64,000 bases of DNA from Escherichia virus TH47: the sequence record MT446416.1; one strand, given 5' to 3'. Positions within the stretch are counted from its first letter, which is position 1; each line of letters begins with the position of its first letter. The notes under the pieces are model-generated. The model was not told the origin of the DNA. It made no database searches and saw nothing but the letters and a program-made list of their open reading frames with translations. The translations under genes were made by a program, and so were the position numbers. Below, piece by piece: positions 45,318 to 62,959 of this stretch.

Positions 45318-46433
45318 TTAGAACATTTGCTTGATTGCTTCAATACGCAATTCAGCAACAAAATCACGAATCTCTGATGTTTGGAGTTCACCATCTTTCA
45401 CTAACTGCTGAATATCAGGTAATTCAACATCAGTATAACGATCATAAACTTTAATAATCAAATCTTCAAGATCAGAATCAATTTCTTTGTTCAAAATGAA
45501 GTTTTCCAGTACTTTGTAAAGGAAATCTTCGCCACCATTGTTTTTGATATTCATCTCCAGTAAGATTTGTCCCATTTCAACGGGGGTCTTCTTACGGAAG
45601 GTTTTAATATCTTCACGGAAACGCTTGATGTAATTACTAAACTTCACGTACTTAACTGGAACCTTAATAGAACCATTAAGTACTGAATCATTATTTACTT
45701 CTTCATTTTCAAGAAGTACTGTCCATAAGAAATATGGTTTATATTCTTCTGTACAATTTGCAGCGATAGCATCAATTAATTCCAGACGTTTCTTGGTAAC
45801 TGGAACTGTAGTAAATGCCTTTTCGTAATAACCAAATTGTACCAGAGTTTTGATAAACTTGGAAGGGTTTTCTTCAGAAAGTGCTTTTTCGAATTCAACA
45901 AAAACACGATCTGGAACTAGATGGTCTAGTTCACCAGTACTAACCATATCTTTACACATTGTCATAGTATCATCATGGATTGTAAAGTCTGAGTAACGTG
46001 TAGCGAAACGTGCCAAACGTAGTACACGCAATGGATCTTCTTTAAAGTGTTCTGATACATGACGAAGTACTTTGTTCTTGATATCAGCTTTCCCGCCATA
46101 AGGGTCGATGTGAATCTGGAGTACTGGATCATACGCTATGCTATTTACCGTAATATCCCTTCTGTATAGATCTTGCTCTAGTGTCACGCCTTTAGTATTC
46201 ACTTCGAAGCCACCGTAGCCAGTACCAGTTTTACGTTCGGTACGTGCCAATGCGTGCTCATTACCCTCTGGACTTAGATACACTGGAAAATCCTTACCTA
46301 CTTGCTTATAGCCAATACTTTGTAAGTACTTAATATCGGATTCGGTAGCACCGACAATGACATAATCTTTGTCTTTTGCACGAATACCCATTAAACGGTC
46401 CCTCACATAGCCGCCCACCAAATACTTTTTCAT
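45318..46433 (-). CDS. tRNA nucleotidyltransferase (CCA-adding enzyme) / poly(A) polymerase head-domain protein
   Basis: N-terminal GGYVRDRLMG, DKDY and RRDITVNSIAYD motifs; GAGGAAGG RBS. Confidence 0.8.
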   Translation of the reverse strand: MKKYLVGGYVRDRLMGIRAKDKDYVIVGATESDIKYLQSIGYKQVGKDFPVYLSPEGNEHALARTERKTGTGYGGFEVNTKGVTLEQDLYRRDITVNSIAYDPVLQIHIDPYGGKADIKNKVLRHVSEHFKEDPLRVLRLARFATRYSDFTIHDDTMTMCKDMVSTGELDHLVPDRVFVEFEKALSEENPSKFIKTLVQFGYYEKAFTTVPVTKKRLELIDAIAANCTEEYKPYFLWTVLLENEEVNNDSVLNGSIKVPVKYVKFSNYIKRFREDIKTFRKKTPVEMGQILLEMNIKNNGGEDFLYKVLENFILNKEIDSDLEDLIIKVYDRYTDVELPDIQQLVKDGELQTSEIRDFVAELRIEAIKQMF

Positions 46434-47497
46434 AATATACCTTCCTCTGAAAGATGTTTTTTTAATACAGTTAAGTGGTCTTCATAATATGTTACACGTA
46501 TTAATTTAATAAAATTCTTTTCACAATATTGTGTCTTTATAGTATCGTTATCCTTGATGTTTTTCAATTTATCTTCTCCACCCCAATGAGGTGATTTCTC
46601 AAAATGTTGTTTACCATCATACTCAATACAAATATCATAATCAACCAAATAAAAATCAAATCTTAATAACATTTTATTTTTACAGTCACTAAATGTTTGT
46701 TCTTTATTAAATTTTATACCATTTTCAATTAAAAAACGTGTTATTTCTCTACTAGCTCTGGATTCAGTATGTTCAGATGAGCATATTGGGCAACCTTGTT
46801 TTTTATTTTTTGCTATATGAAAATTTGGAATGATATAAAAAGAATTATTATGTTTTTTACAAATTATTTCAACATGAGTGCTACTATTAATGTAGATGAC
46901 TTTTGAATAGTCATATACATTACCATGAATTTCTTTTGCTCGTTCAACAAATTCAGCGGTGGTGAATGCGTGTGCTAATCTGGTTTTTTCAAATCGACAA
47001 ATAGAGCAACCCTGACCACTTTGTATATTACTAATTTCCATTTCATCAACGTGACCACATTTTAAGCATTTATAAGTTAATTTGGTTCTTTTATCTTTAA
47101 TTATTGGTTGTTCTAAAAGTAATTCACATTCACCAGTCATTAGACTTTTTGAAGTCTTATAAAGATAATATCTATAATTTGCATTGTCATATTTCCCAAT
47201 GATATATTTCATACCTTTCGTTTTTATATCATTTATATTTCTTTTTGTATATATAATACCATCTTTTTCAACAACAGTTCTTGTAAAACTAGATTTCCAT
47301 TCATCACTTGATGTTATAGCAAATCCTAAAATATTATATCCTTTTTCTATTATTTCTTCAAAATGTTCTTTAGGTGTTTTTGATGTTTTAATTAATTTTG
47401 GTGATAAATCTTCGGGACGCATCCATTCGAAACGCATACCTAATTCTTCATGGAAATATACCTTCTCGTTATTTTCATTAAAATAAAATTTATACAT
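46430..47497 (-). CDS. Vsr/DUF559-type endonuclease-like protein with zinc ribbon (homing-endonuclease candidate)
   Basis: CLKCGH...CSIC and CPIC Cys pairs; C-terminal LLRFDFYLVDYDICIEYDGKQHFE resembles DUF559 endonuclease motif. Confidence 0.5.
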   Translation of the reverse strand: MYKFYFNENNEKVYFHEELGMRFEWMRPEDLSPKLIKTSKTPKEHFEEIIEKGYNILGFAITSSDEWKSSFTRTVVEKDGIIYTKRNINDIKTKGMKYIIGKYDNANYRYYLYKTSKSLMTGECELLLEQPIIKDKRTKLTYKCLKCGHVDEMEISNIQSGQGCSICRFEKTRLAHAFTTAEFVERAKEIHGNVYDYSKVIYINSSTHVEIICKKHNNSFYIIPNFHIAKNKKQGCPICSSEHTESRASREITRFLIENGIKFNKEQTFSDCKNKMLLRFDFYLVDYDICIEYDGKQHFEKSPHWGGEDKLKNIKDNDTIKTQYCEKNFIKLIRVTYYEDHLTVLKKHLSEEGIL

Positions 47498-49098: not shown

Positions 49099-49431
49099 TT
49101 ACTCTTCGTCTTCAGTCAAGTCTTCTTGAACTGGATGTTCTGGGTGGTTACGGCGATGCAATTTGATGCTTTTGTCTTTACCTAAGACAGTTTCCATTTT
49201 TTCAAATGAATCACCAATTGCTTTGTATAAATCTGCATCATCGGCTGTAACACTCTTACCGCCTGATGTTAAAGTTACGGAATATTGGTTCTTATGCTCT
49301 TTCTTCACATGAACACCAATATGCAGTACTGAAGAATCACTAAACTTCGTTAGTGCATTTGCTTCAGCATGAATTGCGTCATTGATTGCTGGAGTAATAT
49401 CAACATTACCTTGGATAACTAAATCTAGCAT
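49099..49431 (-). CDS. hpf: ribosome hibernation promoting factor / RaiA-like protein
   Basis: aligns along its length with HPF/YfiA (IQGNVDIT.A, VHVKKE, TLTSGG, DLYKAIGD, KLHRRNH); AAGGTAGG RBS. Confidence 0.8.
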   Translation of the reverse strand: MLDLVIQGNVDITPAINDAIHAEANALTKFSDSSVLHIGVHVKKEHKNQYSVTLTSGGKSVTADDADLYKAIGDSFEKMETVLGKDKSIKLHRRNHPEHPVQEDLTEDEE

Positions 49432-49455: not shown

Positions 49456-50382
49456 TTAAAGATTACTAACTAACAATTCTGCACGGTTTCCTACTTGACG
49501 ATACCATAGAGAATTCTTAATTTCTTTTTTGAACTTGTTATCATTTTGATTATCAACGCTTTTCCATAATTTATTGAAAGTATTTAACTTATCAACTCCT
49601 AATGTAAATGCCATCTCAAATAAAATTCGTTGTTGTTCAGCCGTAAGGTTTGTTGCATTTCTTTTCTTCAATAATAAAACTAAATCATTATTAGTTCGTT
49701 CCATGTCAGACAATAAAAGTTTATGTGCTTGTGACTTCGTAATACCATTACGATACTTACTTGCATCTGATTCTTTCTTTCCAAGATAATGTCCGTACCC
49801 AATAGTGAAGTTACCTTTTATATCACGATACGGATAAAATTTAGAATTTCGATATGGAACTCCAACTTTCCCACCAAGTAAACGTCGTTTGTTCTTGGAC
49901 TGAAATTCAATAGAACCTTCAGCTTCTTTGATGTGATTGACAATTTCTGGATCTTTATAATCAAACAGTACAGTCACATCTGGTAACAATACGTGCTTCA
50001 AATCCTCTTTTGTTGGGATAAAGATACCCTGAGAAGTATGAAGAGTTGCATTTAAGTTGATGTTCTTCAACAAAATGACATAATCTTCAATCTGTACATT
50101 TTTAGGTTTAAATTTCTGTGCAATAGAATAATAACTATCACCAGGTTGAACCGTATAATGTTTCTCGCTGCTTGGAACTGCTTTTGGTACTGATACCTTT
50201 GGTAGTTCCTGCTTTTGAATTTGAGTAAACTGTGGTTTTAAATTATGCACCTGACTTTCGTCTAATGATGGTACATGATCACTTTGAGAAAAACCATAAA
50301 ATCCAATAGCAGCGAATAGGGCTGATGAAACTAATACGCCTACGGCAATTTTAGTTTTCAGTGCTTTTTTCGCTTTTTTCAA
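49456..50382 (-). CDS. signal-anchored LysM + T4-lysozyme-like (GH24-type) protein, endolysin candidate
   Basis: TTG start after AAAGGAGG RBS; N-terminal basic stretch then helix IAVGVLVSSALFAAIGFYGF; LysM-like YTVQPGDSYYSIAQKF; C-terminal FTIGYGH...LWYRQVGNRAELL resembles T4 lysozyme. Confidence 0.65.
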   Translation of the reverse strand: MKKAKKALKTKIAVGVLVSSALFAAIGFYGFSQSDHVPSLDESQVHNLKPQFTQIQKQELPKVSVPKAVPSSEKHYTVQPGDSYYSIAQKFKPKNVQIEDYVILLKNINLNATLHTSQGIFIPTKEDLKHVLLPDVTVLFDYKDPEIVNHIKEAEGSIEFQSKNKRRLLGGKVGVPYRNSKFYPYRDIKGNFTIGYGHYLGKKESDASKYRNGITKSQAHKLLLSDMERTNNDLVLLLKKRNATNLTAEQQRILFEMAFTLGVDKLNTFNKLWKSVDNQNDNKFKKEIKNSLWYRQVGNRAELLVSNL

Positions 50383-50498
50383 AACGCCTCCTTTGTTGGT
50401 TGTTAACAATGAGCAATCACAAAGAGGGCAAAGAGGCCATTTGCAAAAGCCTCATTGGACTTTCTACAGTACTCAGTTGTTCTTTGGAACATTTAAGT

Positions 50499-50526
50499 AG
50501 TATAGCATACTTTTTAGTTATATCAA
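50499..50526 (-). promoter_or_regulatory. sigma70-like promoter upstream of the lysozyme gene
   Basis: minus strand TTGATA-N16-TATACT; about 110-nt leader containing hairpin GAGGC..GCCTC. Confidence 0.4.
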
Positions 50527-50549: not shown

Positions 50550-50960
50550 TTAATCGTAATATGTTCTACCAATGGTGATGTGATATTTGAAATATTTAGA
50601 TGCTAAACCAAGTTCATCACGAATTTGTGCAATGAAATCATCTTCAAACTCTATGATAAAGAATGACCCAGGTTTCTTATTGTCTTTTACTTCTTCGATG
50701 AAAGGTTCGAACTTAATCTTAACTTTCATACCATCGTACTTTTTCCAGTACTCTGGATTTGGTGGCACTTCACCACGAACGATACTGACATGTGCTCCCC
50801 ATTGGGGGTCTTTAATATCAATATGTAAGTCAGTTCTGATGAAGTACTGGTAGTATCGAACCAACTGTAATGGAAGTTGCAGTACTAACCAGAAGTCCTT
50901 CTTCTTTTTCATAGTGCCACGATCTGGATCATACACCAGAGTTCCTTCCATTTCAATCAT
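50550..50960 (-). CDS. 2H phosphoesterase family protein (LigT/Acb1-like)
   Basis: two H-x-(S/T)-x motifs, GAHVSIV and YHITIG, about 70 aa apart in a 136-aa protein. Confidence 0.6.
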   Translation of the reverse strand: MIEMEGTLVYDPDRGTMKKKKDFWLVLQLPLQLVRYYQYFIRTDLHIDIKDPQWGAHVSIVRGEVPPNPEYWKKYDGMKVKIKFEPFIEEVKDNKKPGSFFIIEFEDDFIAQIRDELGLASKYFKYHITIGRTYYD

Positions 50961-52570: not shown

Positions 52571-52795
52571 TTAAACGTTATCATCATCCAATATTTCACG
52601 GTAAACATAATAAACATGTGTACCTAGAAGAACAATGAGTACAATGAAGACTAACCAGAATGGTACAAAATGCAGTACAAGTGCAAATGCCATTACGGTA
52701 ATAATCATTACTACTGAACTGAAAATAAGACTGGTCGCTTTTTTAAATCCAGATAGTACATCATTCAAAACGCGTTTCATAAATGAATCAACCAT
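52571..52795 (-). CDS. small two-helix membrane protein (holin-like candidate)
   Basis: 74 aa with two hydrophobic segments and charged C-terminus; GAGGAAG RBS. Confidence 0.45.
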   Translation of the reverse strand: MVDSFMKRVLNDVLSGFKKATSLIFSSVVMIITVMAFALVLHFVPFWLVFIVLIVLLGTHVYYVYREILDDDNV

Positions 52796-59516: not shown

Positions 59517-59831
59517 TTAATCCTCGGATTTAATTTTAACCTTAACATCTTGATTTTGTAAATCACGAATAGTTTTAATTAATGCATCATGTTTTAGTGC
59601 ACAGTCATTGTACATTGCATCCCATTTTGCAAGTACTGCAAGAATTTCAGCACCATCATATCCTCTGAACCCGTTTTTATCGACCATGATCTTACTTGGT
59701 AGTGGTGTGTTTTCATCACAACGTTCAAGTAAGATTTCTTGTTCTACAATTGGCTTAGGTTGATACTTAATTTCTTCAGCACAACCACTAATTAATAGAA
59801 AAGAAATTGCAAATACTAAAGCGTATTTCAT
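59517..59831 (-). CDS. o-spanin (outer-membrane lipoprotein lysis component)
   Basis: signal peptide with lipobox LISGC, short mature protein; start overlaps i-spanin stop. Confidence 0.65.
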   Translation of the reverse strand: MKYALVFAISFLLISGCAEEIKYQPKPIVEQEILLERCDENTPLPSKIMVDKNGFRGYDGAEILAVLAKWDAMYNDCALKHDALIKTIRDLQNQDVKVKIKSED

Positions 59832-60202
59832 TTGAATTTATTCCTCGCTGCAAGGGAATTCTGTTTAAGTTCATTCAGAAGTTTAACGCCATCTTCATCT
59901 AGACATACGTTTTTGTAAACTTCTCTTTCTACTATAATAGGCACTTGTGTCTCGATAACTTTAGCATTATCTTGCATTATCTTTTTGGTTTCGATATAGT
60001 TTTTTGCATTTTCTTGCTGCATCTTAGCGAGTGCAGAATCAACTTTCTTTTCTATTTTTTGGTCAATACTTTCTTTATAACCAGTATAATAAGTATTTGC
60101 TGACCATCCACCATAAACACAACCTGCCATTACTCCTACTACCAAAATTGGTTTCCAATATGGTATTAAAACTTTTGAAACAATAATTTCTAGTACACTC
60201 AT
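59828..60202 (-). CDS. i-spanin (inner-membrane lysis component)
   Basis: N-terminal TM helix ILVVGVMAGCVYGGW followed by coiled-coil-like charged region; AGGAGA RBS. Confidence 0.65.
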   Translation of the reverse strand: MSVLEIIVSKVLIPYWKPILVVGVMAGCVYGGWSANTYYTGYKESIDQKIEKKVDSALAKMQQENAKNYIETKKIMQDNAKVIETQVPIIVEREVYKNVCLDEDGVKLLNELKQNSLAARNKFK

Positions 60203-60682: not shown

Positions 60683-62959
60683 TTATTTTTTACTGTACCA
60701 TTGCATTTCACGGATATCTAATAGTACCTTCGTAGCCAACTTTATGTTTGGTCGCTTCGGTAGATGGGTTTTATGATACGCCACATTTCGGATGTAGTCA
60801 ACCTTTTCGTTGAAATAATCCATAACTTCTTGATACAACCACTTCCCGTTACGAATGTCCATCAACATAGCAGCATCTGGTCGGTGAACTTGGATGATGC
60901 CAGTTTCAAGTGCTTCCTCGGCTGTATTCAGCAGCCTGATTGTATGCATAGCATGTTTGCAATTTCCATGTAATGCGGTTTTTCCATTTCTACGAGTAAT
61001 GAGTGTTCCGTTGGGAACAGAAAAACACACAGTTCTGTAATTAGTAACTGGAATTTTTTCAAGATTTTGTTTCATGTTCATTTTTTCGGTTTTGGGTTTC
61101 ATATTGATATGAATTTGATATATATCAACACTACCAAAATTGGTTTCGTTTGTGTATGGTCCCCATTTTGATGTTTCATAACCACATAGCAATGCTAGTT
61201 TTTGAACATCATCAGCTAATAATGAATTGGTAGTATAATATACAAATGTATCATTGTCATTAACTAAATTTCGTTTTGTTCCATCACCTTGTAACAAACC
61301 TTTCAGAAGGAAATCCATTTTACGTTTTGTTAAATCAAATACCCAATTTGGAATTCGTTTATTATATGAACCATGTCCACAATCATTATATAATGCTTCA
61401 GCTACTTCACTTGGGAATGTATATCTTGATTCGTCATTAGCTTGATAATCTTTCTTTTCTATAATGTATTCATTAAACATTAATTGACCAGATTTTTTGT
61501 ATTTTGATAAAGCACAACGCATACCTTGACTAGTTTTTGACTGGGAAATATATAAAGATTTTACTTTACCATCCCTGAAATTTATGCACCCATCTGAAAT
61601 AAACCATCCCATGAGTTGAAGATAAACTTTGATATCCATGTAGTCAATTGGACTTTTTTTATCTTTGTGTTCTTTAGTTATTGGGGATATTGTATTCAAA
61701 ATTTTATATGTTTCTTTTAATTGTGCTGCTTCTACAAATTTCCAATCAGACATATCTTTTTGTTGATTTCGTGCATAATCCTTAACATACATTCGGTGGT
61801 TAGCAGTCACTAAAGTATCTTGGTGATGACCAGTGAAATGGTATAGATTGCCATTATATAAATTATCAAAACGTTCAGTGTATTTCTGATATTCAACTTT
61901 GTGATTTTTGTCAAAAGTAGCTAATAGATCGTTTTCAGTAATATCATCAAATAACTTCCAACCATCTTTAGTTAAGAATTCAGTATCAAAACTATAACAG
62001 TCATAACCGTGGTGTGATTCAAGAATAGCACGTTTGGCATTACGGTTCTGCTTCCATTTGTGATAACTCTTACGGTTCTCACTATTTTCTTTGTATTCCT
62101 TTTCATTGAATTTTACAATGAGTTCAGGACGAACTTTTAATTCTTCCGAAGTACGTTCTTTATTGAAGTAACGTAGTGAACCATCAGCATTCACTGTACT
62201 TTCATTCGGGTTGATAATTACCCCAAAGATGTTTTCACCGTAATGGATTAGTTCATATCCAGAATTGTAATTCAATAAATTGAAATCACGATCTAATACT
62301 TTGTCAGTACTATAATTATGTACTAAACGTACAAAATGATATTGTTTCAATGCTTGTGTTGAAACTAATTGTAATGAAGTATCACGCATGTATTTTTCGA
62401 AATCAATTTTTGTAGCATTGAATGGGTGAAGATTGGATTTATTCAAACGGTCAACCAAATACTGCGGGAATGTATCATACATCCATGAAAGTACTTCGTC
62501 AACTGGATGTTCTTCTAAAATTTCATTTAGTTTACGTTCAGCAATTCGTTCCTTATCGAGCCATCCGTGGTGATTCGACATACGCTTAACCTGATTGTAT
62601 GCATAACCACTGTATGAATGAGCAATCTTTGAACTCAATAATTGCTGATTGAATGAGCGTAGATAGTCATAGATTTCAGTACTTTCTACGATGTGTTCCG
62701 GTTTAACCCATAGTGATTCAAGAATGTTTGGGTTAGCTTCTGTATAAAGACTTAAGTACTGATTGACTTCATAAAATTTAGTATCTTCTTCAGAAGGATC
62801 TGAAACTTCCTTAACATTAAAAAAAGGAGTTAGGATAAATTCTTTGTTTGCAAGGAAGATACCACGATAATCGGTATCACTTTCTGGTGTGCTTGTGCCA
62901 TACGCCTGTGAACCCGCTAAGTGTTTAACAATTGTTTGTTCTAGAAAATTGTTTTTCAT
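60683..62959 (-). CDS. Pol-beta-superfamily nucleotidyltransferase-fold protein interrupted by a probable intein
   Basis: N-terminal HLAGSQAYGTSTPESDTDYRGIF (GS...DxD NTase motif); in-frame 346-aa insert with Hint and LAGLIDADG blocks. Confidence 0.55.
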   Translation of the reverse strand: MKNNFLEQTIVKHLAGSQAYGTSTPESDTDYRGIFLANKEFILTPFFNVKEVSDPSEEDTKFYEVNQYLSLYTEANPNILESLWVKPEHIVESTEIYDYLRSFNQQLLSSKIAHSYSGYAYNQVKRMSNHHGWLDKERIAERKLNEILEEHPVDEVLSWMYDTFPQYLVDRLNKSNLHPFNATKIDFEKYMRDTSLQLVSTQALKQYHFVRLVHNYSTDKVLDRDFNLLNYNSGYELIHYGENIFGVIINPNESTVNADGSLRYFNKERTSEELKVRPELIVKFNEKEYKENSENRKSYHKWKQNRNAKRAILESHHGYDCYSFDTEFLTKDGWKLFDDITENDLLATFDKNHKVEYQKYTERFDNLYNGNLYHFTGHHQDTLVTANHRMYVKDYARNQQKDMSDWKFVEAAQLKETYKILNTISPITKEHKDKKSPIDYMDIKVYLQLMGWFISDGCINFRDGKVKSLYISQSKTSQGMRCALSKYKKSGQLMFNEYIIEKKDYQANDESRYTFPSEVAEALYNDCGHGSYNKRIPNWVFDLTKRKMDFLLKGLLQGDGTKRNLVNDNDTFVYYTTNSLLADDVQKLALLCGYETSKWGPYTNETNFGSVDIYQIHINMKPKTEKMNMKQNLEKIPVTNYRTVCFSVPNGTLITRRNGKTALHGNCKHAMHTIRLLNTAEEALETGIIQVHRPDAAMLMDIRNGKWLYQEVMDYFNEKVDYIRNVAYHKTHLPKRPNIKLATKVLLDIREMQWYSKK
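60962..61999 (-). mobile_element. probable intein with LAGLIDADG homing-endonuclease domain
   Basis: block A CYSFDTEFLTKDGWKLFDDI, block B LVTANHRMYV, two LAGLIDADG-like motifs LMGWFISDG and LLKGLLQGDG, C-terminal NGKTALHGN followed by Cys. Confidence 0.5.

Follow-up and report, generated by a model that had tools for sequence, protein, structure and literature searches.

The gene and its start

The DNA analysed here, referred to throughout as the window, is a stretch of 64,000 nucleotides from Escherichia virus TH47 (sequence record MT446416.1), an Asteriusvirus jumbo coliphage. Its minus strand carries a gene for a modular lysozyme, in which a predicted transmembrane (TM) helix precedes a LysM domain and a T4-type lysozyme domain (GH24). 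The gene and the signals for its translation are as follows:

50382..49456, minus strand: TM-LysM-GH24 lysozyme gene, coding for 308 aa from its TTG start to a TAA stop
50382-50380, minus strand: TTG start codon, the supported start, giving 308 aa
50387..50394, minus strand: Shine-Dalgarno sequence AAAGGAGG, followed by a 4-nt spacer, CGTT, and then TTG

Read mechanically, the open reading frame (ORF) spans 50409..49456 on the minus strand and specifies 317 amino acids. A preliminary description, made from the sequence of the window, had set an ORF at 49456-50526 and begun translation at a TTG codon six nucleotides after AAAGGAGG. The ORF is present, on the minus strand, and its coding sequence reaches only to 50382. 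The choice of TTG was sound: the codon follows the Shine-Dalgarno sequence, the record annotations of JNE01 and 121Q use the identical start, and in GAP32-like loci initiation has to be at the equivalent TTG, because an in-frame stop lies three codons before it. The spacer, however, measures four nucleotides rather than six. AAGGAG(G) is kept at the matching position in 14 aligned loci. Of the 26 loci checked, 25 have a start codon other than ATG, in keeping with a toxic product that is made at a low level. Database entry P0001, a predicted protein that corresponds to the 317-aa ORF with the upstream start, is 100% identical to our query over its full 308 aa.

Orthologues of the window protein are 121Q gp532, CBB_187, GAP32 gp180 and phAPEC6 gp293. 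The protein is 99% identical to its counterpart in JNE01, ~81% identical to those in 121Q and PBECO4, and ~55% identical to that in GAP32. Seventy-seven full-length homologues have the same architecture, and the features confirmed here go well beyond chance. No other GH24 gene was found within the 64-kb window. Two paralogues lie outside it; in the related Asteriusvirus 121Q these are gp586, of 162 aa (the LysUE1 type), and gp587, a baseplate hub lysozyme of 887 aa. LysUE1, an Asteriusvirus T4-type lysozyme of 162 aa, is active in vitro, where it lyses cells (PMC12805682).

Domain architecture

Behind a short basic N-terminus, the protein is made up of four segments:

50290..50349, minus strand: hydrophobic helix IAVGVLVSSALFAAIGFYGF, residues 12-31 (20 aa), a predicted type II signal-anchor or SAR-like segment
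50161..50289, minus strand: low-complexity linker, residues 32-74 (~43 aa), rich in Q, P, S and K (pLDDT <50 over residues 1-72)
50020..50160, minus strand: LysM peptidoglycan-binding domain, residues 75-121 (PF01476 match and modelled fold)
49459..49962, minus strand: GH24 (T4-type) lysozyme domain, residues 141-308 (PF00959, profile search of the PDB, Foldseek)

The order signal-anchor, LysM, lysozyme was proposed in the preliminary description, and Pfam, the structural model and the 77 homologues all uphold it; the individual elements stand as well. The N-terminus (MKKAKKALKTK) has a net charge of +6, and 31 of 32 family members carry a positive net charge ahead of the helix, the exception being P0066, where it is 0. 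The helix itself has a summed Hessa free energy of +1.15 kcal/mol and consists of Gly, Ala, Ser and Thr to 47%. Across the 32 members, helices range from anchor-like (-3.0 kcal/mol) to very weak (+3.5 kcal/mol), with a median content of these four residues of 37%. By eye, no polar c-region follows the helix; Ala-rich stretches (SSA and FAA here, AAA in relatives) leave cleavage possible. The protein has no cysteine anywhere. The linker varies from 37 to 62 aa across the family.

The LysM segment matches PF01476 partially (profile positions 1-17) and just above the cut-off (21.4 versus 20.9 bits). It is matched in 20 of 32 homologues (best E=1.3e-6), and the AlphaFold model gives it a beta-alpha-alpha-beta fold (strand 75-77, helices 84-91 and 98-108, strand 119-121). 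Identification of the lysozyme domain is firmer. PF00959 matches at 38.2 bits (E=2e-9; cut-off 22.3 bits), and all 32 family members have this match; a profile search of the PDB finds T4 lysozyme at E=5e-26; and the best Foldseek matches are T4 lysozyme too (probability 1.0, target-normalized TM-score ~0.6). Residues 73-308 are modelled at a pLDDT of ~90 or more, and the GH24 domain at >90. A fold search of BFVD added nothing beyond family members.

The catalytic residues

T4-type lysozymes are recognizable by a Glu, an Asp and a Thr at canonical spacing, E-8aa-D-5aa-T. The Asp and the Thr had been noticed at the outset, together with an Arg nine residues ahead of the Asp, where the Glu was expected; the Glu was accordingly described as missing, or else the catalytic residue as shifted. 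The positions concerned are:

49804..49824, minus strand: Asp187 (49822-49824) to Thr193 (49804-49806), equivalent to D20 and T26 of T4 lysozyme
49918..49920, minus strand: Glu155 (codon GAA), proposed general acid, counterpart of T4 lysozyme E11
49843..49911, minus strand: family-specific insertion of 23 residues, IEFQSKNKRRLLGGKVGVPYRNS (residues 158-180), between Glu and Asp and including R178

The Asp and Thr assignments, from HMMER alignment to T4 lysozyme, agree with the first reading. In our alignments A1 and A3, D187 never varies; T193 does not vary in A1, and its conservation in A3 is 90% or more. The Arg, too, is where it was said to be (R178 in the numbering of the 308-aa protein, R187 in that of the 317-aa ORF), but it lies within the insertion, and the Glu is found ahead of it. 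E155 and the adjoining G156 are invariant in 32 of 32 close homologues and in 17 of 17 distant ones, down to 29% identity. The first helix of the modelled domain (residues 145-156) terminates at this pair, and E11 of T4 lysozyme is placed likewise. MAFFT alignment by way of the two paralogues sets E155 against E11. The insertion, which falls in the beta-hairpin region, is itself conserved (Q161, R166, L168 and G171 are invariant in A1). When it is deleted in silico, PF00959 scores 45.5 bits instead of 39.6, and the alignment begins at profile position 1. Because this test returns alignment coordinates only, the column of E155 was obtained by ungapped count; it is column 4, the first column of the T4 lysozyme match (residues 11-141).

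Local alignments (Pfam, phmmer, hhalign of the family against T4 lysozyme, and hmmsearch against the PDB) show no aligned Glu. They begin past the insertion, and so could not have placed it. Taken at face value, these alignments and the Arg nine positions before the Asp would point to a lysozyme derivative that has lost its general acid and merely binds the cell wall, as the preliminary description offered in one of its two interpretations. We regard this as highly improbable. Conservation of E155-G156, D187 and T193 over such distances argues against it, as do the full-length Pfam alignment obtained by deletion and the count that puts E155 on the E11 column. The 162-aa type to which the active LysUE1 belongs has the same alignment start (PF00959 position 10), and induction of the CBB orthologue, CBB_187, inhibited growth of Escherichia coli, a result reported as ‘data not shown’ (PMC5259590).

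On the evidence of sequence, then, the catalytic Glu is present. It lies 32 residues before D187, far from it in sequence because of the family-specific insertion, and the spacing becomes E-31aa-D-5aa-T: a variant within GH24 in which the Glu-Asp distance is lengthened, the catalytic residue is not shifted, and none is lost. The muramidase is predicted to be catalytically intact, with E155, D187 and T193 as its full set. The apparent loss was an artefact of alignment. Glu and Asp have 31 residues between them in this GH24 subfamily (21 in the paralogues) rather than 8, so ‘E-8aa-D-5aa-T’ rules and local HMM alignments wrongly flag the general acid as absent.

Predicted promoter and leader RNA

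Two further elements lie upstream of the coding sequence:

50499..50526, minus strand: match to a sigma-70-like promoter, TTGATA-16-(TG)nTATACT, with an extended -10 TG (consensus match only)
50440..50467, minus strand: conserved block in the leader, GTAGAAAGTCC-loop-GGCTTT(G)TGCAAA, which could pair as a 9-bp RNA hairpin with a loop that varies

The promoter match agrees with the sigma-70 consensus at 10 of 12 positions and, as a consensus match, predicts a leader of ~110 nt. Position 50526, the upper coordinate given in the preliminary description, is its first base. At the corresponding position 121Q has TTGTAA-16-TATACT, and in the distant relatives L054, L055, L059 and L060 near-consensus promoters resembling TTGACA-17-TATAAT, likewise identified by consensus, lie immediately upstream of the gene. 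These motifs suggest early transcription, which would be unexpected for a lysis enzyme unless its translation or its activity were restrained. There is a precedent in T4 lysozyme, which is also transcribed early yet held untranslated (PMC3014915).

Each RaK2-like genome has the leader block a single time, invariably upstream of the lysozyme gene; every pair of the hairpin can form in all 16 distinct leaders. An Rfam search of the leaders of the window and nine related loci gave no credible match. Other identities for the block were considered and rejected: its single occurrence per genome rules out a repeated promoter motif; loop indels of 2-5 nt, which are not multiples of three, rule out coding sequence; and most lineages have no U-tract, which rules out an intrinsic terminator. 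In the GAP32-like clade, the ribosome-binding site is less accessible than in shuffled leaders (z from -2 to -3). No such reduction is seen in the window (z=+0.5), L007 or L056, and a universal model of ribosome-binding-site sequestration is therefore unsupported for the window.

The conserved non-ATG start, together with the hairpin in the leader, is a hint that a toxic lysis enzyme may be tightly controlled after transcription, in a way for which gene e of T4 is the precedent. In its strongest form, the timing of the lysozyme would be mainly post-transcriptional: a conserved weak start, the invariant hairpin (GUAGAAAGUC/GGCUUU(G)UGC) and lineage-specific anti-Shine-Dalgarno pairings would together gate translation of the tethered LysM-muramidase, and some phage or host factor would recognize the hairpin as its operator. 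This we consider improbable. Were it true, it would amount to a lysis clock for jumbo phages that is independent of a canonical holin, with the long linker letting the muramidase reach the wall. Nothing usable on the transcriptomes of RaK2-like phages was found in the literature.

Lysis context and probable role

The neighbours of the gene function in translation, RNA repair and nucleotide metabolism, and are not lysis genes. Farther off in the window, one lysis module can be recognized:

59517..60202, minus strand: likely spanin pair, comprising an i-spanin (59828-60202) and a lipoprotein (59517-59831; lipobox LISGC), the genes overlapping by 4 nt

The pair matches phrog_1152, ‘Rz-like spanin’, at E=1e-27, and we infer that it acts in the same lysis pathway as the lysozyme. 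No holin or pinholin is annotated within 20 kb of the gene in fEgEco12. A hydrophobicity scan of the window picked out a protein of 74 aa with two TM helices (52571-52795) as a candidate holin only. A search of the literature for lysis genes of phage Munch yielded nothing usable.

Some records annotate the protein as a ‘tail lysozyme’, and its GH24 domain resembles in sequence, in PHROG and PDB comparisons, the lysozymes of baseplate hubs and of the virion interior. It might thus be a virion component, one that breaches the wall as the DNA is ejected. This is barely credible in our view: phAPEC6 gp293 was explicitly not detected by mass spectrometry of the virion, the list of CBB virion proteins passes from CBB_183 to CBB_201 without CBB_187, the separate 887-aa hub protein has a lysozyme domain of its own, and an N-terminal signal-anchor is unexpected in a tail protein.

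Rather, we think it likely that the gene encodes an exported, membrane-tethered and catalytically intact muramidase, a non-virion protein that is the predicted endolysin of the RaK2/121Q-type jumbo phages. The N-terminus would direct Sec-dependent insertion, N-terminus inside and C-terminus outside, and the LysM and catalytic domains would thereby be periplasmic. The membrane tether, together with low synthesis from the TTG start and structured leader, would restrain the enzyme. Depolarization of the membrane or release of the anchor would then permit attack on the peptidoglycan, much as with SAR endolysins, after which disruption of the outer membrane would fall to the Rz-like spanin pair, whose genes lie 9.4 kb upstream. 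The toxicity reported for CBB_187 on induction fits a lytic enzyme. A SAR-type endolysin was also the other interpretation of the preliminary description; the role is plausible, and has been proposed for this family (PMC5259590), but the shifted catalytic residue that went with it falls away.

What counts against a role as the main endolysin is that Asteriusvirus also encodes the soluble 162-aa T4-type lysozyme, active in vitro, which could itself be the main endolysin. The protein described here would then be an exported muramidase with some function other than lysis, either permanently anchored or freed by signal peptidase, that remodels peptidoglycan early, or opens it locally, during the long jumbo-phage cycle. 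Besides the second, active lysozyme, the sigma-70-like promoters immediately upstream in several lineages, the metabolic neighbourhood, the strongly hydrophobic, anchor-like helices of several family members, and a linker of 37-62 residues, by which a tethered enzyme could extend to the wall, are all in keeping with this. We nevertheless judge it unlikely. The gene for the 162-aa lysozyme is flanked by the hub and gp25-like genes, inside the baseplate cluster, a site no more ‘lysis-like’; lysis genes are scattered in T4-type genomes as well, and T4 lysozyme, too, is transcribed early but held untranslated (PMC3014915); a remodelling role has no known precedent; and the toxicity reported on induction suits a lytic enzyme. 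As a candidate endolysin of a Gram-negative host with a natural cell-wall-binding domain, the protein has some applied interest.

Comparison with known systems

The closest systems are the orthologues. CBB_187, GAP32 gp180, 121Q gp532 and RaK2 gp506 were predicted in silico to be endolysins with TM, LysM and lysozyme segments by Buttimer et al. in 2017, who proposed a SAR-like role for them (PMC5259590). Together with phAPEC6 gp293, they have the three-part architecture, the weak LysM and the genomic neighbourhood in common with the window protein, and no structural difference from it. Architecture and role are thus already published; the catalytic residues, the insertion between Glu and Asp, the non-ATG start and the leader element are absent from that description.

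The paralogues, gp586/LysUE1 and gp587, share with the window protein the motif IKExEG(S/T)xx(Y/F)Q...(F/Y)(K/R)NxKF(W/Y)xYxD, and in them, too, Glu and Asp are set apart by an insertion. Theirs is of 13 residues, giving E-21aa-D-5aa-T; that of the window protein is 10 residues longer (RRLLGGKVGV). Both lack the TM helix and the LysM domain, the former being soluble and the latter a hub protein of the virion.

The SAR endolysins (e.g. P1 Lyz, R of phage 21 and gp45 of phiKMV) resemble the window protein in their basic N-terminus, uncleaved-looking helix and GH24 Glu/Asp/Thr, and its helix is only marginally hydrophobic, with a free energy and a Gly/Ala/Ser/Thr content near the values that we computed for P1 Lyz and R21. 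Unlike in these enzymes, the helix is ~110 residues from the catalytic domain (it ends at residue 31, and the domain starts at ~141), with the linker and LysM domain between; 31 residues rather than 8 separate Glu and Asp; and no pinholin gene is adjacent. With no cysteines, disulfide caging is impossible, and with the helix so remote, the known mechanisms of SAR control cannot apply as such. SAR behaviour is uncertain, with helix hydrophobicity in the family ranging from anchor-like to very weak.

T4 lysozyme, finally, has the same fold, Asp, Thr and C-terminal lobe motifs, and its Glu, too, stands in an ‘EG’ motif that ends the first helix. It has 8 residues between Glu and Asp where the window protein carries the 23-residue insertion, and a loop region, residues 35-50, that the window protein lacks. 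T4 lysozyme is cytoplasmic and depends on a holin, whereas the window protein has a predicted export signal and a LysM domain.

The lysozyme gene and its family

The lysozyme feature is real, and the preliminary description outlined it correctly. The product, of 308 amino acids, is organized as follows:

Residues 1-11: basic N-terminus, net charge +6
Residues 12-31: hydrophobic helix
Residues 32-74: Q/P/S/K-rich linker (model pLDDT below 50 for residues 1-72)
Residues 75-121: LysM, beta-alpha-alpha-beta in the model, Pfam LysM match just over threshold
Residues 141-308: T4-lysozyme fold, confident

The basic N-terminus and hydrophobic helix, the LysM-like segment and the T4-lysozyme-like domain had all been described from the sequence alone, and all are borne out. 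The Pfam LysM match recurs in 20 of 32 homologues, and HMMER aligns the recognizable Asp and Thr (D187 and T193) to D20 and T26 of T4 lysozyme. The Arg noted nine residues before the Asp is R178.

By tblastn, the window is assigned to the genus Asteriusvirus (jumbo coliphages of ~350 kb), and the protein is 99% identical to its counterpart in vB_EcoM_JNE01 and ~81% to those in 121Q and PBECO4. Its orthologues include 121Q gp532 and phAPEC6 gp293. A database search returned 77 full-length homologues of the same architecture. Among 1.84 billion representatives searched exhaustively, only 11 clusters reached E<=1e-30, the remaining matches covering the lysozyme or the LysM part alone, which makes the family compact and confined to RaK2-like phages.

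The catalytic glutamate

The preliminary description held that the catalytic Glu was apparently missing, with Arg in its place. The Glu looks absent because every local alignment, whether by Pfam, phmmer or hhalign, begins just past the region where it is expected. Upstream of that point lies the sequence IKEAEGS, which contains E155-G156. Both residues are invariant in the 32 homologues, and likewise across 17 more distant sequences with identities down to 29%. Helix 145-156 of the model terminates exactly at E155-G156; E11 of T4 lysozyme lies at the end of helix 3-10.

Two paralogous lysozyme domains are encoded by related Asteriusvirus genomes (121Q), neither of them found when the window was searched for other lysozyme genes:

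121Q gp586: 162-aa lysozyme paralogue
121Q gp587: 887-aa baseplate hub with a C-terminal lysozyme domain

Both share with the window protein the motif IKExEG(S/T)xx(Y/F)Q...(F/Y)(K/R)NxKF(W/Y)xYxD. When the three are aligned with T4 lysozyme by MAFFT, E155 falls on E11, and the insertion between Glu and Asp measures 23 residues in the window protein and 13 in the paralogues. The Pfam profile PF00959 agrees. T4 lysozyme matches it over residues 11-141 (profile positions 4-110), placing E11 at position 4. The intact window domain matches only from position 10 (39.6 bits), and the 162-aa paralogue is truncated likewise. Removing the 23 residues IEFQSKNKRRLLGGKVGVPYRNS in silico extends the window match to position 1 (45.5 bits), and the Glu then occupies position 4, by ungapped count from the alignment coordinates rather than by residue alignment. 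PDB sequence searches yielded no chain aligned across the insertion region. On these comparisons the ‘missing Glu’ is an artefact of alignment, and the one claim that made the feature unusual is refuted. The predicted catalytic triad is E155-D187-T193 (spacing E-31aa-D-5aa-T), its three-dimensional equivalence to that of T4 lysozyme being drawn from secondary structure and alignment. Judged by analogy, the insertion class is compatible with activity, since the 162-aa type includes LysUE1, which has been purified and lyses cells (PMC12805682).

Role in lysis

The window protein is a member of an already published family of predicted endolysins of RaK2-like jumbo phages, comprising CBB_187 and its homologues GAP32 gp180, 121Q gp532 and RaK2 gp506 (Buttimer et al., PMC5259590). 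These authors described an N-terminal transmembrane domain, a weak LysM and a C-terminal lysozyme, noted the likeness to signal-arrest-release (SAR) endolysins, and reported, as data not shown, that induction of CBB_187 inhibits growth of E. coli. In the virion proteome of phAPEC6, gp293 was explicitly not detected, and CBB_187 is missing from the virion table of CBB. From the distribution of charge at the N-terminus, N-in, C-out insertion is predicted, and a probable spanin pair lies on the same strand, 9.4 kb upstream:

59828-60202, minus strand: Rz-like i-spanin, 124 aa (phrog_1152, E=1e-27)
59517-59831, minus strand: lipoprotein, 104 aa, lipobox LISGC, 4-nt overlap with the i-spanin gene

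In fEgEco12 these two genes are labelled ‘FtsB’ and ‘lytic conversion lipoprotein’. Given the published prediction, the absence from virions, the predicted topology and the spanin pair, the protein is most likely a muramidase that is exported, tethered to the membrane and active in lysis. The main endolysin could instead be the soluble 162-aa lysozyme, which also goes unreported in virion mass spectrometry of phAPEC6 and CBB and whose gene sits within the baseplate cluster of 121Q. It may serve as an endolysin or as a baseplate accessory. In 121Q (genes 586 and 587; locus L004, 45346-48534), it lies directly between the hub-lysozyme gene and the gp25-like baseplate gene.

The helix of the presumed tethered muramidase resembles SAR domains in being marginally hydrophobic (a simple Hessa sum gives +1.15 kcal/mol) and in its Gly/Ala/Ser/Thr content (47%); across the family, hydrophobicity ranges from -3.0 to +3.5 kcal/mol. 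Unlike in SAR endolysins, the helix is ~110 residues away from the catalytic domain and the protein has no cysteine, so that, on its sequence, the known mechanisms of SAR control cannot apply directly. Within 20 kb of the lysozyme gene in fEgEco12, the annotation has no holin. A 74-aa protein of the window (52571-52795, minus strand; phrog_22328, function not assigned), whose gene adjoins that for thymidine kinase, may be a holin or pinholin; it has two helices of strong hydrophobicity, and its C-terminus is acidic. What remains new is small: the long Glu-Asp insertion, the conserved weak start codon and a gene-specific leader hairpin.

Neighbouring genes

Immediately downstream of the lysozyme gene is one for an HPF/RaiA-type ribosome hibernation factor (49099-49431, minus strand; PF02482, E=5e-11). 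It adjoins the lysozyme gene also in 121Q, phAPEC6, fEgEco12 and several metagenomic loci (L056, L060 and L061), and is missing at that position in the distant relatives L054, L055 and L059. The upstream neighbour (50550-50960, minus strand) contains two H-x-T/S motifs and matches 2H-SAK phosphoesterases below threshold (23.8 bits versus a cut-off of 27); in related loci its homologue lies amid genes for RNA ligase, CCA-adding enzyme, NUDIX, glutaredoxin and macro-domain proteins. A 355-aa homing-endonuclease-like protein (46430-47497, minus strand; phrog_559 ‘HNH endonuclease’, E=2e-51) has a treble-clef zinc finger. Its gene may be a mobile insertion, because the annotations of 121Q and fEgEco12, the two compared, list no endonuclease between the lysozyme and tRNA nucleotidyltransferase genes. 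A nucleotidyltransferase-like ORF of 758 aa (60683-62959, minus strand) has, by eye from its translation, an apparent mid-protein insert resembling an intein or homing endonuclease.

Start codon and leader

The elements at the 5' end of the gene, all on the minus strand, are:

50409..49456: mechanical ORF, 317 aa
50382-50380: second in-frame TTG, the supported start, giving 308 aa
50394-50387: AAAGGAGG, with a 4-nt spacer (CGTT) before the TTG
50383-50498: leader, carrying a conserved non-coding block with a potential hairpin (core 50440-50467)
50526 (first base): sigma-70-like promoter match, TTGATA, 16 nt, TATACT, extended -10 TG

The first base of the promoter match is also the upper coordinate assigned to the feature originally. 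The TTG start proposed then agrees with the annotations of the nearly identical JNE01 and of 121Q, and with GAP32-like relatives, in which the equivalent TTG has an in-frame stop three codons before it and no other start keeps the conserved N-terminus; the spacing, given as six nucleotides, is four. Of the 26 lysozyme loci compared, whose proteins are as little as ~40% identical, 25 start with TTG or GTG, and the sole ATG follows an unusually long spacer; for comparison, 83 of 90 annotated neighbouring genes (~92%) start with ATG. This near-constancy points to selection for weak initiation.

The leader block occurs once in the window, and also at L006 3881-3994, L057 2912-3000 and other related loci. 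The block, GTAGAAAGTCC-loop-G(A/C)G(G/A)CTTT(G)TGCAAA, is kept upstream of the gene in relatives with only ~50% protein identity. When 2.9 million viral contigs were scanned for the pattern, the block appeared once per RaK2-like genome, before the lysozyme gene in 13 of 13, together with four unrelated chance matches. A coding function was rejected because loop length varies by 2-5 nt. Every one of the 16 distinct leaders can form the possible 9-bp hairpin; of its pairs, seven are the same throughout and two change on one side only, with pairing retained, and two invariant U-G wobbles argue for action as RNA rather than as a DNA palindrome. A preceding hairpin has four covarying pairs. Rfam searches of the leader, from the window and related loci, gave no match. 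In most lineages the leader folds better than its shuffled versions (z of -2.3 to -4.1); that of the window does not (z=-0.9). The GAP32-like clade shows significant predicted masking of the ribosome-binding site, the window leader none. Sequences downstream of the hairpin pair with the Shine-Dalgarno region in some clades; the leader of the window has no such predicted pairing. Two lineages without the block have instead a terminator, a consensus sigma-70 promoter and a short leader. These features are suggestive of a possible role for the leader in lysozyme expression. For such a role, gene e of T4 offers a precedent: there, a leader hairpin holds early transcripts untranslated (PMC3014915).
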